Shown one piece after another: positions 1-7,138 of a stretch of DNA of 7,138 nt (position 1 is its first letter; every line of letters begins with the position of its first letter). The DNA is from a virus (lineage: Duplodnaviria; Heunggongvirae; Uroviricota; Caudoviricetes), in IMG/VR virus record IMGVR_UViG_2802429226_000002, positions 1 to 7,138 of that record, one strand, 5' to 3'. Below the pieces are notes generated by a model. It did not search any database. It was not told the DNA's origin and worked only from the letters and a program-made list of their open reading frames with translations. The translations under genes and the position numbers were made by a program.

Positions 1-159
1 GTGGTTGGTTATTACCCGAAATTAAGCCAGCTCGTTTCCGGCCTGATGCATCACGATATTCTGACCGGAAGCGCAAAATCTTTTGCCGATTTAAACGCGC
101 AGGTTGAGCAACTCAGCAAGCGTTGTTCAGAGGCGTTCTCCAGAGGAGCGTCTGAATGA
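1..159 (+). CDS. 3' end of an upstream early-operon gene (partial; N-terminus lies outside the window). By synteny possibly a P2 B-like or other early gene, identity not established.
   Basis: Frame 1 is open from base 1 to a TGA at 157-159 (translation ...KRCSEAFSRGASE*). The stop overlaps the ATG of the next gene (ATGA at 156-159), typical of translationally coupled phage operons. Not in the ORF track because it has no start within the window. Confidence 0.4.
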   Translation: MVGYYPKLSQLVSGLMHHDILTGSAKSFADLNAQVEQLSKRCSEAFSRGASE

Positions 160-1163
160 TTACTGATGCACGTTGCCATACTGAAAATACCATCAATGTT
201 ATTTTTGTTTCAGGTGGAAAGGACAGCCTTGCTCAGTGGCTTGTCGCTATTGAAGAAAATGTACCCATATTGCCGGTTTTTGCTGATACGGGACATGAAC
301 ATCCACAGACAATGAAATATCTGGATTATCTGGAAAAACGGCTTGGCCCAATTAAAAGAGTCAGGGCTGATTTTTCCTGCCGGATTGAATCAAAGCGCAA
401 GTTTATCCAGACCAAATGGCCTGATTTGTTGGTTAACGATTGTGGAATGTCGGAAGAAGAAGCACGCCAGCGCATCAGTTGTGCGCTGGAAATTCTCAAA
501 CCAACGGGTATCCCGTTTCTTGATTTGTGTTTGTGGAAGGGGCGTTTCCCATCAACCAAAGCCAGATTTTGCACATTTGAACTGAAACATGAGCCCGTGC
601 GTTCTCAGGTAATATTGCCTTTACTCAATGAATTTGAGGAAGTGATTAGCTGGCAGGGAGTGCGTGCTCAGGAATCGCCATCACGCGCAGCTTTACCTGT
701 CTGGGAAGAGGATGCAGACAACACCCCCGGATTGCATGTATATCGCCCGATTTTGCACTGGAAGCATGAAGATGTATTTGCAATAGCCAGAAGACATGAC
801 ATTAAGCCAAATCCGTTATATCAGCAGGGGTGTGGCCGTGTTGGTTGTATGCCATGTATTCATGTCCGTAAATCTGAACTGGCAGAAATTTTTCGCCGGT
901 GGCCGGAGGAAATAAAACGGGTTGCTGAATGGGAACGACTGGTTGCGTCGTGCTCCCGTCGGGGAAATTCCACTTTTTTCCCATCCACACATGATCCGCT
1001 ACGCGCAGAACGTCGTATTGAGATTGTAACAGTCGAGGCATACGGAATAGAAACCTACCATGACTGGACAATGACAACGCGTGGGGGTACTCAGTTTGAT
1101 TTACTGGCTTCGGCGAATGATAAAGCCGTTTGCAGTAGTGTCTATGCCGGTGTATGTGAATGA
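156..1163 (+). CDS. PP-loop ATP pyrophosphatase superfamily protein (PAPS reductase-like), 335 aa; phage accessory gene of unknown role
   Basis: N-terminal SGGKDS motif (nt 210-227) is the classic SGGxDS PP-loop of the PAPS reductase / ATP sulfurylase-like family. A Cys cluster C-x4-C-x2-C (CGRVGCMPC, nt 831-857) lies near the C-terminal third. A GAGGAG Shine-Dalgarno sits at 143-148, 7 nt upstream of the ATG. The stop overlaps the start of gene A (ATGA at 1160-1163). Confidence 0.75.
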   Translation: MITDARCHTENTINVIFVSGGKDSLAQWLVAIEENVPILPVFADTGHEHPQTMKYLDYLEKRLGPIKRVRADFSCRIESKRKFIQTKWPDLLVNDCGMSEEEARQRISCALEILKPTGIPFLDLCLWKGRFPSTKARFCTFELKHEPVRSQVILPLLNEFEEVISWQGVRAQESPSRAALPVWEEDADNTPGLHVYRPILHWKHEDVFAIARRHDIKPNPLYQQGCGRVGCMPCIHVRKSELAEIFRRWPEEIKRVAEWERLVASCSRRGNSTFFPSTHDPLRAERRIEIVTVEAYGIETYHDWTMTTRGGTQFDLLASANDKAVCSSVYAGVCE

Positions 1164-3433
1164 GTCATTCTTTCCAGGAGCAATACACCTGCGTACCTCC
1201 GTCTGCGTTTGCCGCAGGCACCGGTAAGGCGTTTACCGGTGCTTATGCATGGAATGCGCCACGCGAGGCTGTCGGGCGCGAAAGACCCCTTACACGTGAC
1301 GAGATGCGTCAGGTGCAAGGTGTTTTATCCACGATTAACCGCCTGCCTTACTTTTTGCGCTCGCTGTTTACTTCACGCTATGACTACATCCGGCGCAATA
1401 AAAGCCCGGTGCACGGGTTTTATTTCCTCACATCCACTTTTCAGCGCCGTTTATGGCCGCGTATTGAGCGCGTGAATCAGCGCCATGAAATGAACACCGA
1501 CGCGTCGTTGCTGTTTCTGGCAGAGCGTGACCATTATGCGCGTCTGCCGGGGATGAATGACAAGGAGCTGAAAAAGTTTGCCGCCCGTATCTCATCGCAG
1601 CTTTTCATGATGTATGAGGAACTCTGCGATGCATGGGTTGATGCACATGGCGAGAAAGAATCGCTGTTTACAGATGAGGCGCAGGCGCATCTGTATGGTC
1701 ATGTTGCTGGCGCTGCACGTGCTTTCAATATTTCCCCTCTCTACTGGAAAAAATACCGTAAAGGACAGATGACCACGAGGCAGGCATATTCTGCCATTGC
1801 CCGTCTGTTTAACGATGAGTGGTGGACTCATCAGCTTAAAGGCCAGCGTATGCGCTGGCATGAGGCGTTACTGATTGCTGTCGGGGAGGTCAATAAAGAC
1901 CGTTCTCCTTATGCCAGTAAACATGCCATTCGTGATGTGCGTGCGCGCCGCCAGGCAAATCTGGAATTTCTTAAATCGTGTGACCTTGAAAACAAGGAAA
2001 CCGGCGAGCGCATCGACCTTATCAGTAAGGTGATGGGCAGTATTTCTAATCCAGAAATTCGCCGGATGGAGCTGATGAACACCATCGCCGGTATTGAGCG
2101 TTACGCCGCAGCAGAGGGTGATGTGGGGATGTTTATCACGCTGACCGCGCCGTCAAAGTATCACCCGACACGTCAGGTCGGAAAAGGCGAAAGTAAAACC
2201 GTGCAGCTTAATCACGGCTGGAACGATGAGGCATTTAATCCAAAGGATGCGCAGCGTTATCTCTGCCGTATCTGGAGCCTGATGCGCACGGCATTCAAGG
2301 ATAATGATTTACAGGTCTACGGTTTGCGAGTCGTCGAGCCACACCACGACGGAACGCCGCACTGGCATATGATGCTTTTTTGTAATCCACGCCAGCGTAA
2401 CCAGATTATTGAAATCATGCGTCGCTACGCGCTCAAAGAGGATGGCGACGAAAGAGGAGCTGCGCGAAACCGTTTTCAGGCAAAACACCTTAACCGGGGC
2501 GGTGCTGCGGGATATATCGCGAAATACATTTCAAAAAACATCGACGGCTATGCACTGGATGGTCAGCTCGATAACGATACCGGCAGGCCGCTGAAAGACA
2601 CTGCCGCGGCTGTTACCGCATGGGCGTCAACGTGGCGCATTCCGCAATTTAAAACGGTTGGCCTGCCGACAATGGGGGCTTACCGTGAACTACGCAAATT
2701 GCCTCGCGGCGTCAGCATTGCTGATGAGTTTGACGAACGCGTCGAGGCTGCACGCGCTGCCGCAGACAGTGGCGATTTTGCGCTGTATATCAGCGCGCAG
2801 GGTGGGGCAAATGTCCCGCGCGATTGCCAGACTGTCAGGGTCGCCCGTAGCCCCTCGGATGACGTTAACGAGTACGAGGAAGAAGTCGAGAGAGTGGTCG
2901 GCATTTACGCGCCGCATCTCGGCGCGCGTCATATTCATATCACCAGAACGACGGACTGGCGCATTGTGCCGAAAGTTCCGGTCGTTCAGCCTTTGACTTT
3001 AAAAAGCGGCATCGCCGCGCCTCGGAGTCCTGTCAATAACTGTGGAAAGTTCACCGGCGGTGATGCTTCGTTACCGGCTCCCACACCTTCTGAACACGCC
3101 GCAGCAGTGCTTAATCTGGTTGATGACGGTGTTATCGAATGGAATGACCAGGAGGTCGTGAGGGCGCTCAGGGGCGCATTAAAACACGACATGAGAACAC
3201 CAAATCGTCAGCAAAGAAACGGAAGCCCGTTAAAACCGCATGAAATTGCGCCATCGGCCAGACTGACCCGGTCGGAACGAATGCAAATCACCCGTATCCG
3301 CGTTGACCTTGGTCAGAACGGTATCAGCCCTCAGCGATGGGAGCTTGAGGCGCTGGCGCGTGGGGCAACCGTAAATTATGAGGGGGTAAACTTCAGGTAT
3401 CCGGTAAATGATGAGTGGCCGGGATTTAATTAA
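1160..3433 (+). CDS. A: Rolling-circle replication initiation endonuclease, P2 gpA family (HUH superfamily), 757 aa
   Basis: Long ORF with an HUH motif (PHWHMML; H-W-H at nt 2360-2368) and a paired-tyrosine motif G-Y-IAK-Y-ISK (Tyr codons at 2513-2515 and 2525-2527), matching the catalytic signature known for P2 A protein. Position immediately upstream of the hotspot and cos fits the P2 gene order. Confidence 0.9.
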   Translation: MSHSFQEQYTCVPPSAFAAGTGKAFTGAYAWNAPREAVGRERPLTRDEMRQVQGVLSTINRLPYFLRSLFTSRYDYIRRNKSPVHGFYFLTSTFQRRLWPRIERVNQRHEMNTDASLLFLAERDHYARLPGMNDKELKKFAARISSQLFMMYEELCDAWVDAHGEKESLFTDEAQAHLYGHVAGAARAFNISPLYWKKYRKGQMTTRQAYSAIARLFNDEWWTHQLKGQRMRWHEALLIAVGEVNKDRSPYASKHAIRDVRARRQANLEFLKSCDLENKETGERIDLISKVMGSISNPEIRRMELMNTIAGIERYAAAEGDVGMFITLTAPSKYHPTRQVGKGESKTVQLNHGWNDEAFNPKDAQRYLCRIWSLMRTAFKDNDLQVYGLRVVEPHHDGTPHWHMMLFCNPRQRNQIIEIMRRYALKEDGDERGAARNRFQAKHLNRGGAAGYIAKYISKNIDGYALDGQLDNDTGRPLKDTAAAVTAWASTWRIPQFKTVGLPTMGAYRELRKLPRGVSIADEFDERVEAARAAADSGDFALYISAQGGANVPRDCQTVRVARSPSDDVNEYEEEVERVVGIYAPHLGARHIHITRTTDWRIVPKVPVVQPLTLKSGIAAPRSPVNNCGKFTGGDASLPAPTPSEHAAAVLNLVDDGVIEWNDQEVVRALRGALKHDMRTPNRQQRNGSPLKPHEIAPSARLTRSERMQITRIRVDLGQNGISPQRWELEALARGATVNYEGVNFRYPVNDEWPGFN
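3017..3036 (+). other. Candidate origin of replication (ori / gpA nick region) inside the A coding sequence
   Basis: In P2 the ori lies within the 3' part of gene A (established). The sequence GCGCCTCGGAGTCCTGTCAA here resembles my recollection of the P2 ori nick region. Exact site and boundaries are uncertain and from memory only. Confidence 0.3.
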
Positions 3434-3632
3434 TGCTTTGATTTTTTAGTTAGGCTGCTCTAGAATCCACGCCAGTTACCGCTTGGGGTATCCTTGCATT
3501 GCTCTTGGTATTAGCTTTATACAAAGGGTGTAAAGGCTGCTATTGGCAACAATAGTGCTGGCATGGAGATAATCTCATGTTAAAGTTAGTGAAAGTACGT
3601 CAGTACAATCGCTATCGTTTCGGTAAGTGGGA

Positions 3633-3652
3633 GACGGTGTGTGAACACCGTC
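3633..3652. terminator. Perfect 8-bp stem / 4-nt loop hairpin between convergent genes; possible weak bidirectional terminator or RNA-stabilising stem-loop
   Basis: GACGGTGT (3633-3640), loop GTGA, ACACCGTC (3645-3652). It lies about 200 nt after the A stop and about 30 nt after the stop of the - strand ATPase gene. The following T-run is weak on both strands (GTTCTTAC on +), so it is not a textbook intrinsic terminator. Confidence 0.3.
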
Positions 3653-3680
3653 GTTCTTACCCAACCCGATGATATGCGGC

Positions 3681-5900
3681 CTAAGCGGTAACGGTTTCCT
3701 CTTCCTCTTCGTCCATCATTTTCAAATAATGTTTTTCATCACCAGTCATACGAAAAATGGTTTTTAGTTGCTCCATATATTTCTCTGGAGATATATCTCC
3801 CATGTCTGTGATGTTAACTGCATCTGAATGGGAACCTCTATTAATGTATCTATAAAATGCTCTAAAATCATTATTCTTATCATCGCTAGCAAGTTTATTT
3901 AACTCTGTCTGTAATGCATCCGTTCTATGAACAAATGCGAAGTAGTATTCCAGTATATTTCTCATGATGTTAGGTATTATAACTTTATTTACCTTTCCAT
4001 CCTTCGCATCTTTTAATACTTGCCATAGGGACTGGTATTCATTCTGAATGCTCTTTTTCTCTATTTCTGTAATTATGCTATATTCATTTTTTGTTACTCG
4101 TCCAAGATAATAATCACGCTTGAATGTTCTATCTTCTTTGCTTCTAGGAGCTAATTTGATAAGTTCATGAAAGAAATAAAGATTATGTGTGAGTATTAAT
4201 GTTTTCTTTACTGCTTTGTTATTGTTGATTATTTCATGGTGAATTATTGAGGCAATATCGTACACATAATTTTGAGAGAGGCTGGATATTGGATCATCAA
4301 TAACGATAAATACATCTCGCATATCCGTATCATTCTTATCTGTCTTACCTTTACAGCATTCTAGAAAGTAGAGAAAGGTAATTAAGGTTTTTTCACCCTC
4401 GCTAAGAGATCTGTATACATCTTTATCTGTTGTGTTTTCAGAACGTGATATAATATATTTATCATTGCTCTCAGTGTGTTTTTTTATGCTAAAACCATAA
4501 ATTCCTAATAATTTTAGACGTTGATTTATAGAATCTATGGTTGCATCAATATTAGATATTTGATCGCGTAGCTCTTTGATCTTTTTGTTATTGTTATCTC
4601 CTTGTTCTTTTATGGAATTTAATTCAAGTTGATATTGTTCATAAATGATTTTATAGTCATTCTCATATTTTGAGAAAGCTTCAAACTCAGCGTTGCATAA
4701 TTCTCTTATTGCTCCCCATATTTTGTAACGTATAGACTTTTCACTATCCTTAAATTGTTTGACTTTAATATTTATTTCTTTAATTCTATTGTTGTACTCT
4801 GTTATATTATCAACTACCTTTGCTTCAAGGTCGCTATTGGATTCCAAAATAATAGATATAGATGGGTTATTGATTTTATCTAACATCAATTTTAAATTTT
4901 TGTTTGCTATTTCCTCTAATAACGCTATATGAGATGATGTTATATCTTTTTCTTTTGAGGTGATTAATTCACAAGATGAAATCTCTTGTTTTATTTTTTT
5001 TAAATTATCTATGGTAGCGGATTCATAAGACGATCTGATAATGCGTATTTGGTCAACTTTCTTGGAGTAGCTATCATCAAAGATAGATTCTATTGCTTCT
5101 AAAAATTTGTCTTTAATAGTGTCTTCTTGGCAGAATGGGCAACATGTGCCATTTAAATATAATTCCTTCCCTTTTTTCACCCAGTCAAGGTTTTGAAGTT
5201 GTTTAATTGTTTCTGACAAATAGCTATTACTTGAGTCTATAATCGGAGTGGATAAAAATTCTTTATCTTTTTCTGAAATGATATATTTTTCTAAAGGTGT
5301 AATTGATGCAGTGAATTTATCTTTGTTCTTTAAAAGAATACTATATTCTTGAGCAAGTGACTCGATATTAACGTCAGTGGTTTGAGGGGCTTTTTTAACT
5401 TGCTCATAAAATGATCTCTTGCTTCCTAACTGACCTTTCATCAAGATCTTTAAGTCAGATGATCTAAAAGGTTCTGCTTTATTCCATATTAAATCAATAT
5501 ATTCATTTTCTTTATTGTTTTTATCTTTAATTAAACGCTCAATAACGTTTTTTTTATCTTTGTATTTTGTAAGTAGGTCTTGTCTTATAGCTTCTTTTTC
5601 CAGCAATTCTTTTTCAATGTCAGCATTTTCCTTACTTAAAGTGAATACTCCTTTTTGCTCTTTTGCATTATAAAAATTATCCTCAACAAACTTGGTATTA
5701 TAAACCAATAGGCGAAAAGTATCTATGAAAGGACATTCGCATTCTTTGTAGTCCGTGTTATTTGGATTATAGAAATAATTAGATATAGTTGATTTTCCAC
5801 AACCGTTGTGTCCATAAAGTATATTAATTTTTTTTGAGAGATTAAGAGTCGTGAAGCTATCTTTCTTATAGCTGGTTATATTCTTTAATTTAAGTTCCAT
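3681..5900 (-). CDS. ABC/SMC-like (AAA_13-type) ATPase with coiled-coil insertion, CxxC motif and C-terminal effector-like domain, 739 aa; candidate single-gene anti-phage defence protein, RloC/PrrC-like (hypothesis)
   Basis: Walker A GHNGCGKST (aa 30-38, nt 5787-5813). ABC signature LSEGEK (aa 499-504, nt 4389-4406). Walker B VFIVIDDP (aa 530-537, nt 4290-4313) followed by an LTHN H-loop-like motif. About 400 aa of K/E-rich, heptad-like sequence between Walker A and the signature, with CCPFC at aa 253-257 (nt 5130-5144). C-terminal ~150 aa form a separate domain. GAGG RBS 7 nt upstream of the ATG (read on the - strand). The gene is strongly AT-rich relative to its flanks. Confidence 0.85.
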   Translation of the reverse strand: MELKLKNITSYKKDSFTTLNLSKKINILYGHNGCGKSTISNYFYNPNNTDYKECECPFIDTFRLLVYNTKFVEDNFYNAKEQKGVFTLSKENADIEKELLEKEAIRQDLLTKYKDKKNVIERLIKDKNNKENEYIDLIWNKAEPFRSSDLKILMKGQLGSKRSFYEQVKKAPQTTDVNIESLAQEYSILLKNKDKFTASITPLEKYIISEKDKEFLSTPIIDSSNSYLSETIKQLQNLDWVKKGKELYLNGTCCPFCQEDTIKDKFLEAIESIFDDSYSKKVDQIRIIRSSYESATIDNLKKIKQEISSCELITSKEKDITSSHIALLEEIANKNLKLMLDKINNPSISIILESNSDLEAKVVDNITEYNNRIKEINIKVKQFKDSEKSIRYKIWGAIRELCNAEFEAFSKYENDYKIIYEQYQLELNSIKEQGDNNNKKIKELRDQISNIDATIDSINQRLKLLGIYGFSIKKHTESNDKYIISRSENTTDKDVYRSLSEGEKTLITFLYFLECCKGKTDKNDTDMRDVFIVIDDPISSLSQNYVYDIASIIHHEIINNNKAVKKTLILTHNLYFFHELIKLAPRSKEDRTFKRDYYLGRVTKNEYSIITEIEKKSIQNEYQSLWQVLKDAKDGKVNKVIIPNIMRNILEYYFAFVHRTDALQTELNKLASDDKNNDFRAFYRYINRGSHSDAVNITDMGDISPEKYMEQLKTIFRMTGDEKHYLKMMDEEEEETVTA

Positions 5901-5936
5901 TTTAAAACCTCATCATTGCCAATGATATTGTATAAA

Positions 5937-5990
5937 TATTTAAGCTGTTTAACATGAATTATATTGCTAAACGATAAAGATCTACCTCAG
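5937..5990 (-). promoter_or_regulatory. Candidate promoter region for the ATPase gene
   Basis: On the - strand a perfect TATAAT hexamer (plus coordinates 5958-5963) lies about 58 nt upstream of the ATG at 5900. No convincing -35 was found (GGTAGA-like at 17 bp). The region is so AT-rich that chance -10-like hexamers are expected. Confidence 0.2.
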
Positions 5991-6230
5991 AAGTTTACTT
6001 TGTTCAAGCAAAATCTTTTGTTCTAAGAGATATAAAAATTTTTATTAATAGTTTGATTTTTGTTCATGGGATTTCCTTTTTTTATGTTTTTACAAAGTAA
6101 TAACTATGCATGTATCAGGTGCATGGTTTTGCATGTGTCAAAGTTATGCGTTCTCGTTGCTTTACGTCACAGCTAGCGAGGATTCAACGTACTCATGCAA
6201 CTGCATCAAAACCGACTCGTGAAGCGGGCG

Positions 6231-6249
6231 GGCGAGGCGGGGAAAGCAC
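6231..6249. other. cos: cos site: 19-nt cohesive-end sequence of P2-type phages
   Basis: GGCGAGGCGGGGAAAGCAC at 6231-6249 matches my recollection of the P2 19-nt 5'-protruding cohesive end. It is placed as expected in a prophage or circularised genome, between the right-end hotspot and the portal gene Q. Flanking sequence is GC-rich, unlike the AT-rich insert. Confidence 0.7.
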
Positions 6250-6391
6250 TGCGCGCTGGCGGTGGTGCTGATTTTATTTTTTCAGCGTCTCAGCACGTCG
6301 TAATGGCGTTTAGATTGTGCGCCGGGGCGTTGGTGTGTCTGCGGGCTGTTTTGTGCGGTGGTGAGTGTGTGAGGGCGTGATGACGGGGTGT

Positions 6392-6413
6392 AAAAAAGCC
6401 GCCCGCAGGCGGC
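6392..6413 (-). terminator. Rho-independent terminator downstream of the portal gene (- strand)
   Basis: Read on the - strand: stop TGA, 5 nt, GCCGCC-TGCG-GGCGGC hairpin (plus 6398-6413) followed directly by TTTTTT (plus 6392-6397 = AAAAAA). GC-rich 6-bp stem, 4-nt loop, U-tract. Confidence 0.65.
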
Positions 6414-6418
6414 GATGT

Positions 6419-7138
6419 TCAGCCGTTGTCAGTGTCCAGTGAGTAGTTTTTAAAGCGGATGACCTCCTGACCGAGCCAGCCGTTTATTTCCCGAATCCTG
6501 TCCTGTAACGGGATAAGCTCATTGCGGACAAAGACCTTTGCCACTTTCTCAATATCACCCAGCGACCCGACGTTCTCCGGCTTGCCACCCATCAACTGAA
6601 AGGGGATGCGGTGCGCGTCCAGCAGGTCAGCGGAGCTGGCTTTTTTGATATTAAAAAAATCGTCCTTCGTTGCCACTTCACTGAGCGGGATAATTTTGAT
6701 GCCGTCTGGCTTTCCCTGCGGTGCATAGAGAAACAGGTTTTTAAAGTTGTTGCGGCCTTTTGACTTGACCATGTTTTCGCGGAGCATTTCGATATCGTTG
6801 CGATCCTGCACGGCATCGGTGACATACATGATGTATCCGGCATGTGCGCCGTTTTCATAATACTTGCGGCGGAACAGCGTGGCTGATTCATTCAGCCACG
6901 CAGAGTTAAGGGCGCTGAGATATTCCGGCAGACCGTACAGCTCCTGATTAATATCCGGCTCCAGCAGGTGAAACACGGAGCCGGGCGCGAAAGGTGTCGG
7001 CTCGTTGAAGGACGGCACCCACCAGTAAACATCCTCCTCCACGCCACGGCGGGTATATTTTGCCGGTGAGGTTTCCAGTCTGATGACCTTACCGGTGGTG
7101 CTGTAACGCTTTTCCAGAAACGCATTACCGAACACCAG
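6419..7138 (-). CDS. Q: Portal protein, P2 gpQ-like (PBSX-family portal), 3' part only; the N-terminus lies beyond the window end
   Basis: The - strand ORF is open to the window edge (the codon at 7136-7138 is sense) and stops at 6419-6421. It sits immediately beside cos, as Q does in P2. The translation (…YGLPEYLSALNSAWLNE…NGAHAGYIMYV…) is consistent in character with phage portal proteins; family assignment is by synteny plus recollection. Confidence 0.8.
   Translation of the reverse strand: MVFGNAFLEKRYSTTGKVIRLETSPAKYTRRGVEEDVYWWVPSFNEPTPFAPGSVFHLLEPDINQELYGLPEYLSALNSAWLNESATLFRRKYYENGAHAGYIMYVTDAVQDRNDIEMLRENMVKSKGRNNFKNLFLYAPQGKPDGIKIIPLSEVATKDDFFNIKKASSADLLDAHRIPFQLMGGKPENVGSLGDIEKVAKVFVRNELIPLQDRIREINGWLGQEVIRFKNYSLDTDNG

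Follow-up and report, generated by a model that had tools for sequence, protein, structure and literature searches.

A phosphoadenosine phosphosulfate reductase-like PP-loop gene coupled to replication gene A of a P2-like phage: a predicted ATP pyrophosphatase with a possible role in counter-restriction

The published descriptions that appear to come closest in logic to the phage protein considered here are those of DndC, a PP-loop ATP pyrophosphatase with a three-cysteine [4Fe-4S] centre and a cysteine dyad (PMC10853773). Among phages, the sole phosphoadenosine phosphosulfate (PAPS) reductase domain with a phenotype is found in the Vibrio crassostreae podophage p0018, where it is fused to a DNA methyltransferase (PAPS(4–175)::Dam); when this fusion and a neighbouring gene were swapped into a sensitive phage, escape from host Dnd resulted (Piel et al.; 10.1101/2021.05.05.442762). 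Our literature search on anti-Dnd and anti-Ssp factors returned this preprint only. PAPS reductases are also present in Aca-regulated, putative anti-defence operons (PMC13551039). Elsewhere, phage PAPS-reductase-like genes are often read as auxiliary metabolic genes (AMGs) of sulfur assimilation, and authors repeatedly call the function of the homologues unknown; none has a demonstrated activity. Here we analyse such a gene in a 7138-nt stretch of DNA (IMG/VR record IMGVR_UViG_2802429226_000002, positions 1 to 7,138; hereafter the window), which represents the early-operon/replication end of a P2-like (Peduoviridae) phage or prophage. The gene lies directly upstream of gene A, which encodes the rolling-circle replication initiator (gpA).

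The gene is an orthologue of orf84 of phage 186 (CP84; NP_052288), whose product is 76% identical to the window protein over the full length. The 186 record describes orf84 as of unknown function and "not essential", and states that translation to the end of orf84 is apparently needed for A. The same record places a polarity terminator, tM1, a short way into A, and indicates that a single gene, A, suffices for replication. A literature search on orf84 and coliphage 186 found nothing on its function. The order orf83 (DUF5405), PAPS-like gene, A and the 4-nt overlaps between these genes are the same in 186 and in the window. However, 186 is an Eganvirus, whereas the backbone around the window gene is of the Peduovirus (P2/Wphi-like) type and rarely contains this insert; at the DNA level the two genes share only 72% identity. 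Our finding re-observes an already catalogued gene of unknown function (186 orf84/PHROG 424) and a coupling to gene A that has already been described for phage 186. PHROG 424, "phosphoadenosine phosphosulfate reductase", is the matching family, and near-identical E. coli copies bear the RefSeq name "phosphoadenosine phosphosulfate reductase family protein".

An earlier note on this DNA had described an open reading frame (ORF) at 156–1163 that encodes an SGGKDS PP-loop and shares ATGA overlaps with the genes on both sides, placed immediately upstream of A in the early operon, translationally coupled to it and outside the core replication functions. All of these points were borne out: the ORF (335 aa) with SGGKDS at residues 19–24 is present, the overlaps can be read at 156–159 and 1160–1163, the downstream ORF is a Phage_GPA gene, and the gene is dispensable in 186 and absent from P2, Wphi and most of their relatives.

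The gene behaves as a cassette. Its flanking DNA matches Wphi, P2 and numerous peduoviruses of Yersinia and Escherichia at ~97% identity, and in P2, Wphi and most relatives orf83 overlaps A directly. Alignment to Wphi places the cassette at window nt ~137–1195: orf83 is near-identical until ~nt 136, and similarity resumes inside A at ~nt 1196. The cassette therefore carries the last orf83 codons, the entire PAPS-like gene and the first ~12 codons of A; its edges fall within orf83 and A, and it rebuilds both coupling junctions. The gene occurs in 44 of the 5426 complete E. coli genomes, with the surrounding P2-like region matched in 2236. Yersinia phage P37 and one record named "Peduovirus P2" carry it at 82% identity, with 4-nt overlaps on both sides. 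Strong purifying selection acts on the gene (dN/dS 0.07–0.09 against P37, 186 and L029).

Translational coupling to A is real and conserved. At 156–159 the ATG of the PAPS-like gene overlaps the TGA of the orf83-like gene, and at 1160–1163 the ATG of A overlaps the TGA of the PAPS-like gene. No Shine–Dalgarno (SD) core is found in the 20 nt before the A start codon (GTCTATGCCGGTGTATGTGA). Where gpA follows directly, an (A/G)TGA overlap with an in-frame ATG or GTG is kept in 15 of 17 related loci; the preceding codons differ at synonymous sites and, likewise in 15 of 17, still encode S(V/I)Y(A/L)GVCE. Such ATGA overlaps are nothing unusual in tightly packed phage operons, and distant homologues are linked to neighbouring methyltransferase genes by 4-nt overlaps as well (phiE125, Rivra); the overlap here is nevertheless more than chance, because it recurs in 186 and P37 and is kept in those 15 loci. 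It is a property of the slot, since in phages without the gene orf83 fulfils this role. Ribosomes terminating at the PAPS-like TGA would reinitiate at the overlapping SD-less ATG of A, and the inserted cassette would thereby recreate the coupling given by orf83 in phages without the gene. This role in the coupling slot is better supported than the enzymatic mechanism proposed below. A perfect 11-bp hairpin (GGCACCGGUAA/UUACCGGUGCU) lies 57–84 nt into A and is kept in Wphi and P37; its position, the same as that of tM1 in 186, makes it a candidate polarity terminator. A consensus terminator scan of nt 1160–1400 found nothing.

The encoded protein is supported as a PP-loop enzyme of the PAPS-reductase superfamily, with a predicted ATP-to-AMP and pyrophosphate activity. 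The PAPS_reduct domain (PF01507) is matched with 120 bits (cut-off 22.5), and the fold raised in the earlier note is also recovered in an AF2 model (pLDDT 93.7), where the last 30 residues (53–73) are the sole low-confidence part. Structure matches are led by adenosine phosphosulfate (APS) and PAPS reductases, followed by the iron-sulfur (Fe-S) thiolases TtuA and NcsA, and LarE; a fold search of BFVD returned solely other viral proteins, unnamed or called "PAPS reductase". A library search yielded 310 cluster representatives at E 1e-30 or better, and conservation was calculated over 120 of the 150 best-scoring representatives (at least 290 aa, each less than 50% identical to the others). Short homologues (~265 aa) from Vibrio and Acinetobacter phages, ~26–29% identical to the window protein (tblastn), share its core, as does a homologue from an IncC plasmid; all lack the helical insert (~residues 85–128) and much of the C-terminal subdomain. 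Longer homologues contain no extra Pfam domains, just a variable insert.

Cysteine conservation is striking within this set: C139 and C231 are invariant (100%, as is K144), C234 and the penultimate C334 reach 98%, and C125 and C326 are ~80% conserved. Arg-loop residues R170, E173, S174 and R177 are conserved at 96–98%. The earlier note had pointed to a C-x4-C-x2-C cluster. The string is present (C226-x4-C231-x2-C234), but C226 is conserved in just 7% of representatives and is mostly replaced by Met, so that this three-cysteine motif is not the conserved unit; only C231 and C234 are kept. In profile alignments the corresponding RVGCxPC segment stands opposite the [4Fe-4S]-binding SIGCEPC of APS reductase (GCEPC in 2goy, GCAPC in 7lhr), at a place where PAPS reductases have no Cys. 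C139 would be the counterpart of the CC..K motif of APS reductases, in a region that lies outside the alignments obtained. The tail with C326 and C334 recalls the mobile catalytic tail of sulfonucleotide reductases, without its ECGLH motif. Taken from these motifs, an Fe-S centre in the phage protein is probable.

Two further observations touch on the family. The IncC plasmid NZ_CP065118.1 (locus L088, 4494–5609) encodes a 371-aa PAPS-reductase-family protein, ~26% identical to the window protein, next to repA; it retains the C139-type Cys, the CxxC and the near-C-terminal Cys, and genes of this type occur on ~1050 conjugative plasmids (IncC and related). The PDB chain 21fy_C ("PptA", 270 aa) gives a weak match to the family profile (E 1.8e-5) at NPLY..RVGCxPC; it is absent from the search with a single sequence and from the fold-search lists, and no literature on it was found. 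PptA may be a solved relative of the PAPS-like clade.

Among defence proteins, PADLOC profiles, which come without a curated cut-off, place SspD (2.7e-21, 74.5 bits, residues 127–282), BrxP (8e-13) and DndC (1e-7) closest to the window protein. All 60 diverse family members examined match the SspD and BrxP profiles, and 49 of 60 match DndC. The phage protein shares with DndC, SspD and BrxP the PP-loop signature, cysteines consistent with an Fe-S centre and a sulfur-relay Cys; it differs from them in its family-specific helical insert and C-terminal subdomain. The DndC-like or BrxP-like character suggested earlier is thus reflected in these matches and does not extend to membership. DndC TIGR03183 scores 21.3 bits against a cut-off of 290.4, with just residues 132–209 aligned. 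The BrxP match is restricted to the PAPS region (profile positions 212–336 of 779), and the window offers no DUF4007, no further Pfam domain in the protein and no brx neighbours. No Dnd-type partners (dndA, dndD or dndE) occur in the window, where the neighbours are DUF5405 and gpA, or among the families listed for 53 divergent loci, and no sspB/C-like partner adjoins the window gene. A QueC-like assignment, also raised in the earlier note, did not hold: QueC (PF06508) gives no Pfam match to the window protein, with weak PP-loop-only matches in a few relatives.

Gene neighbourhoods were compared across 76 IMG/VR loci, 53 of them divergent. DNA methyltransferases are the commonest neighbour family: in the divergent loci the D12, C5, N6_N4 and MT-A70 families account for ~23 of the 201 genes at positions ±1 and ±2. 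Motif-defined methyltransferases make up 26/292 genes at ±1/2 and 8/640 farther out in the same loci (odds ratio 7.7, p = 4e-8); 24 of the 76 loci have one within ±2 genes. A D12 Dam gene lies no more than three genes away in 14 loci, many of them P2/186-like, and is usually directly upstream, and in phiE125 and Rivra overlapping methyltransferases flank the PAPS-like gene. Mom, dATP/dGTP diphosphohydrolase and DUF4406 occur once each. Dnd, Ssp and Brx partner families are absent from the neighbour families listed. Of the modification genes whose co-occurrence the earlier note had proposed to check, Dam recurs in the 14 loci above and DNA methyltransferases as a group are enriched; ParB (its helix-turn-helix family lies near the gene in few loci only) is marginal. 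The Vibrio phage 1.047.O (locus L092, 344–4168) encodes, one after another, a CP83/DUF5405-like protein, a DUF3987 protein, a short PAPS-like protein of 265 aa and a CHC2 primase; as this phage is unrelated, the pairing of DUF5405 and a PAPS-like gene by replication genes recurs outside P2-like phages.

We tentatively favour, at somewhat less than even confidence, a reading in which the gene product is an Fe-S PP-loop ATP pyrophosphatase, made early and active on nucleic acid, whose sulfur transfer serves counter-restriction; host components or methyltransferases would probably target it, and the ORF would also deliver ribosomes to A. ATP would be bound at SGGKDS and DTG, a substrate oxygen adenylated and pyrophosphate released. 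C139, C231 and C234 would hold a [4Fe-4S] cluster, to which C125 might contribute a fourth ligand, and C326 and C334 on the flexible tail could relay sulfur from a host cysteine desulfurase such as IscS. The target would be nucleic acid, with the replicating DNA of the phage itself as the likeliest candidate, and the effect counter-restriction, for example by supplying or imitating a phosphorothioate (PT)-type self mark. Because the phage has no DndD-, SspC- or BrxC-type nucleoside triphosphatase (NTPase) or DNA-recognition subunit, the enzyme would borrow the host PT machinery or work with DNA methyltransferases, whose genes adjoin or are fused to those of its homologues. We infer all of the enzymatic steps in this scheme. 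A DNA-modification or anti-restriction role, which the earlier note had considered plausible, gains indirect support from the methyltransferase enrichment, the SspD/BrxP matches and the Vibrio PAPS–Dam swap.

Several observations weigh against this proposal. All four proven PT systems need a P-loop NTPase in addition to the PAPS-domain protein (PMC12914056), and neither the window nor the neighbour families listed include such a partner. Dnd and Ssp each occur in roughly 3–4% of genomes, and most hosts have neither. The protein scores similarly to CysH (67 bits) and SspD (74.5 bits), and its Fe-S binding is itself something that we infer. The loci behind the methyltransferase enrichment are related and not phylogenetically independent, and the window itself has no adjacent methyltransferase. 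Its gene is neither fused to nor beside one, unlike the domain in p0018, a phage that we compared by its description alone; in that case two genes were swapped and the PAPS domain is fused to Dam, so the phenotype belongs to the swap as a whole. Finally, orf84 is dispensable in 186 according to the record annotation. A more specific version, in which the partner-less Fe-S PP-loop enzyme writes a phosphorothioate or thio-base onto replicating phage DNA, either by co-opting host components (IscS, and DndD/SspC/BrxC where present) or with DNA methyltransferases as its sequence-targeting module, seems doubtful to us. If true, it would amount to a portable counterfeit of the host self mark, carried by thousands of phages and conjugative plasmids.

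The closeness to SspD, BrxP and DndC, the lack of partner genes of its own and the anti-Dnd phenotype tied to a PAPS domain in the Vibrio phage would also suit a poison subunit or decoy: a DndC/SspD mimic that leaves phage DNA itself unmodified and, by binding host PT or BREX-4 partners (DndD/E, SspB/C, BrxC or else the restriction modules), knocks out the host system or sends it astray. We regard this as unlikely. The PP-loop, DTG, Arg loop and Cys set are 88–100% conserved over deep divergence with a dN/dS of ~0.08, and catalytic-type residues so well kept under so low a dN/dS suggest an enzyme more than a binding protein. The family is also spread over hosts in which PT systems are rare.

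A further possibility, and a distinctly unlikely one in our view, is an RNA-directed PP-loop enzyme in the manner of TtcA, TtuA or NcsA, tuning translation or shielding tRNAs from anticodon nucleases. The Cys motifs of these [4Fe-4S] thiolases are placed differently from those of the phage protein, which is without zinc fingers or RNA-binding parts and resembles them far less than the CysH/SspD branch. Pfam detects no RNA-binding domain, sequence profiles favour CysH and the SspD/BrxP/DndC branch, and it is DNA methyltransferase and replication genes that lie nearby rather than genes for tRNA or translation.

PHROG and RefSeq names would make the gene an AMG, that is, a genuine APS/PAPS reductase boosting sulfate assimilation during infection. 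CysH and APS reductases are indeed the best solved-structure matches, and they have in common with the phage protein the DTG motif, the Arg loop, the Fe-S CxxC and a Cys on a flexible C-terminal tail. However, the protein falls below every curated cut-off: 67.4 bits against 154 for the CysH model NF002537, 46.7 against 165 for TIGR00434, 39.8 against 254 for TIGR02057 and 53 against 235 for the APS reductase model TIGR02055, with the CysH models aligning just residues ~153–254. The canonical SGGKDS stands opposite a degenerate loop in CysH (SSFGIQA; 1sur, 6vpu) and APS reductase (SFSGAED; 2goy, 7lhr). Of the CC...CxxC pattern of Fe-S APS reductases, the CxxC is present and aligned; ahead of the conserved K144, in a region outside the HMM alignments, one conserved Cys (C139, followed by T140) stands where the reductases have a pair. 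The catalytic ECGLH motif is missing; the protein ends in CSSVYAGVCE (family consensus G-x-C-E) and has ~150 extra residues without a reductase counterpart. The gene sits among DNA methyltransferase and replication genes, not sulfur genes, and enteric hosts already possess cysH. A metabolic role is therefore improbable, and a confident match to an ordinary CysH, which by the earlier note's own terms would have refuted it, was not obtained.

Proximity to gpA could instead hint at a replication helper that partners gpA or works at the origin, perhaps through chemical modification of the DNA ends or nucleotides that rolling-circle replication needs. The two genes lie within three genes of each other in 23 of the 76 loci, including homologues only ~45% identical; a short Vibrio phage homologue stands between DUF3987 and the CHC2 primase, and the IncC homologue beside repA. 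Yet in P2, Wphi and most relatives the same gpA (~97% identical DNA) sustains replication though the gene is missing, A alone suffices in 186, where orf84 is not essential, and many homologues occur in phages without gpA. We consider such a role very unlikely. That the ORF is mainly a translational relay or spacer for A, its product incidental, is the least credible reading: the 186 record does tie A translation to the end of orf84 and the overlap is conserved, but the low dN/dS and invariant catalytic motifs speak against it, orf83 couples to A in Wphi and P2 without the gene, and homologues persist in phages that have no gene A.

Table 1. Features of the 7138-nt window, with positions given in window coordinates.
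Feature	Position	Strand	Evidence or remark
orf83-like DUF5405 gene, 3' end (P2 orf83/186 CP83 homologue)	1–159	+	Pfam DUF5405 1.2e-5; phrog_154 2e-17
Shine–Dalgarno-like AGAGGAG	142–148	+	7 nt 5' of ATG at 156; read from sequence
PAPS-reductase-like PP-loop gene, 335 aa + stop	156–1163	+	PF01507 1.2e-34; phrog_424 7e-86
TGA stop of DUF5405/orf83-like gene	157–159	+	overlapped by start of PAPS-like gene
PP-loop S19-G-G-K-D-S24, ATP pyrophosphatase signature	210–227	+	88–94% conserved, 120 representatives
D44-T-G46 nucleotide-binding motif	285–293	+	common to CysH and APS reductases; 88–94% conserved
C139-x4-K144	570–587	+	Cys and Lys each 100% conserved; C139 candidate Fe-S ligand
Arg loop G168-V-R170-x-x-E173-S174-x-x-R177	657–686	+	~98% conserved; aligns with CysH GLRReqSqsRa
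C226, neighbour of CxxC	831–833	+	not family-conserved
C231-M-P-C234 (CxxC)	846–857	+	aligns with [4Fe-4S]-binding CxxC of APS reductases
C-terminal tail C326-SSVYAGV-C334-E	1131–1160	+	flexible in model; coding DNA doubles as gene A translation-initiation region
ATGA stop/start overlap, PAPS-like gene/gene A	1160–1163	+	read from sequence
Gene A, rolling-circle replication initiator	1160–3433	+	Pfam Phage_GPA 3.4e-124
11-bp hairpin inside gene A	1217–1243	+	-28.1 kcal/mol, z = -2.9; candidate polarity terminator
AAA_13 ATPase, 739 aa, low GC	3681–5900	-	Pfam 4.6e-102
Portal gene, partial	6419–7135	-	gene annotation of window

Between gene A and the portal gene the window carries an AAA_13 ATPase gene with a GC content of 27–31% (~50% in the flanks), bordered by non-coding stretches at 3434–3680 and 5901–6418. 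It matches the PADLOC candidate defence family PDC-S06 (4e-253), with a PrrC-like C-terminal region (2.4e-14), and has the look of defence cargo gained by horizontal transfer, perhaps an anticodon-nuclease-type system. As a DndD-like partner of the PAPS-like protein it was rejected: its matches are to PDC-S06 and PrrC, not DndD. It is moreover low-GC hotspot cargo on the opposite strand, gives way to different cargo in prophages that share the PAPS gene, and occurs without that gene in 20 E. coli genomes. Cargo at this site varies independently of the PAPS-like gene across prophages: one prophage with the same gene has an Old-like nuclease, another a set comprising ASCH/DUF3850, a C5 methyltransferase and DUF262/HEPN. 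The IMG/VR contig L008 (noted at 4532–6823 and 7298–8407), whose PAPS gene is 99% identical to that of the window, has a C5 DNA methyltransferase in the hotspot instead of the AAA_13 gene; its gpA is split into two ORFs, which may reflect a frameshift, a pseudogene or an assembly error. Elsewhere in the window we noted a sigma-70-like site at 3438–3466 (+) and an unusually high GC skew (0.21) across 6001–6500; Rfam and tRNA scans of the 7138 nt were empty. A literature search on IbrA/IbrB found only unrelated "iBRB" papers.

In phage and plasmid genomes, few "metabolic" annotations are as common as that of a PAPS-reductase-like gene. The canonical PP-loop, the Cys signature (C139, CxxC and the C-terminal Cys), the lack of the CysH motif and the association with methyltransferases together constitute evidence against reading this family as AMGs. 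The P2/186 version offers a good experimental entry, with a tractable phage, a dispensable gene and an E. coli host, and natural isogenic backbones with and without the gene exist. If the counter-restriction hypothesis is true, a widespread class of anti-defence enzymes would be added to those already described, and the scoring of such genes in viromics would change.

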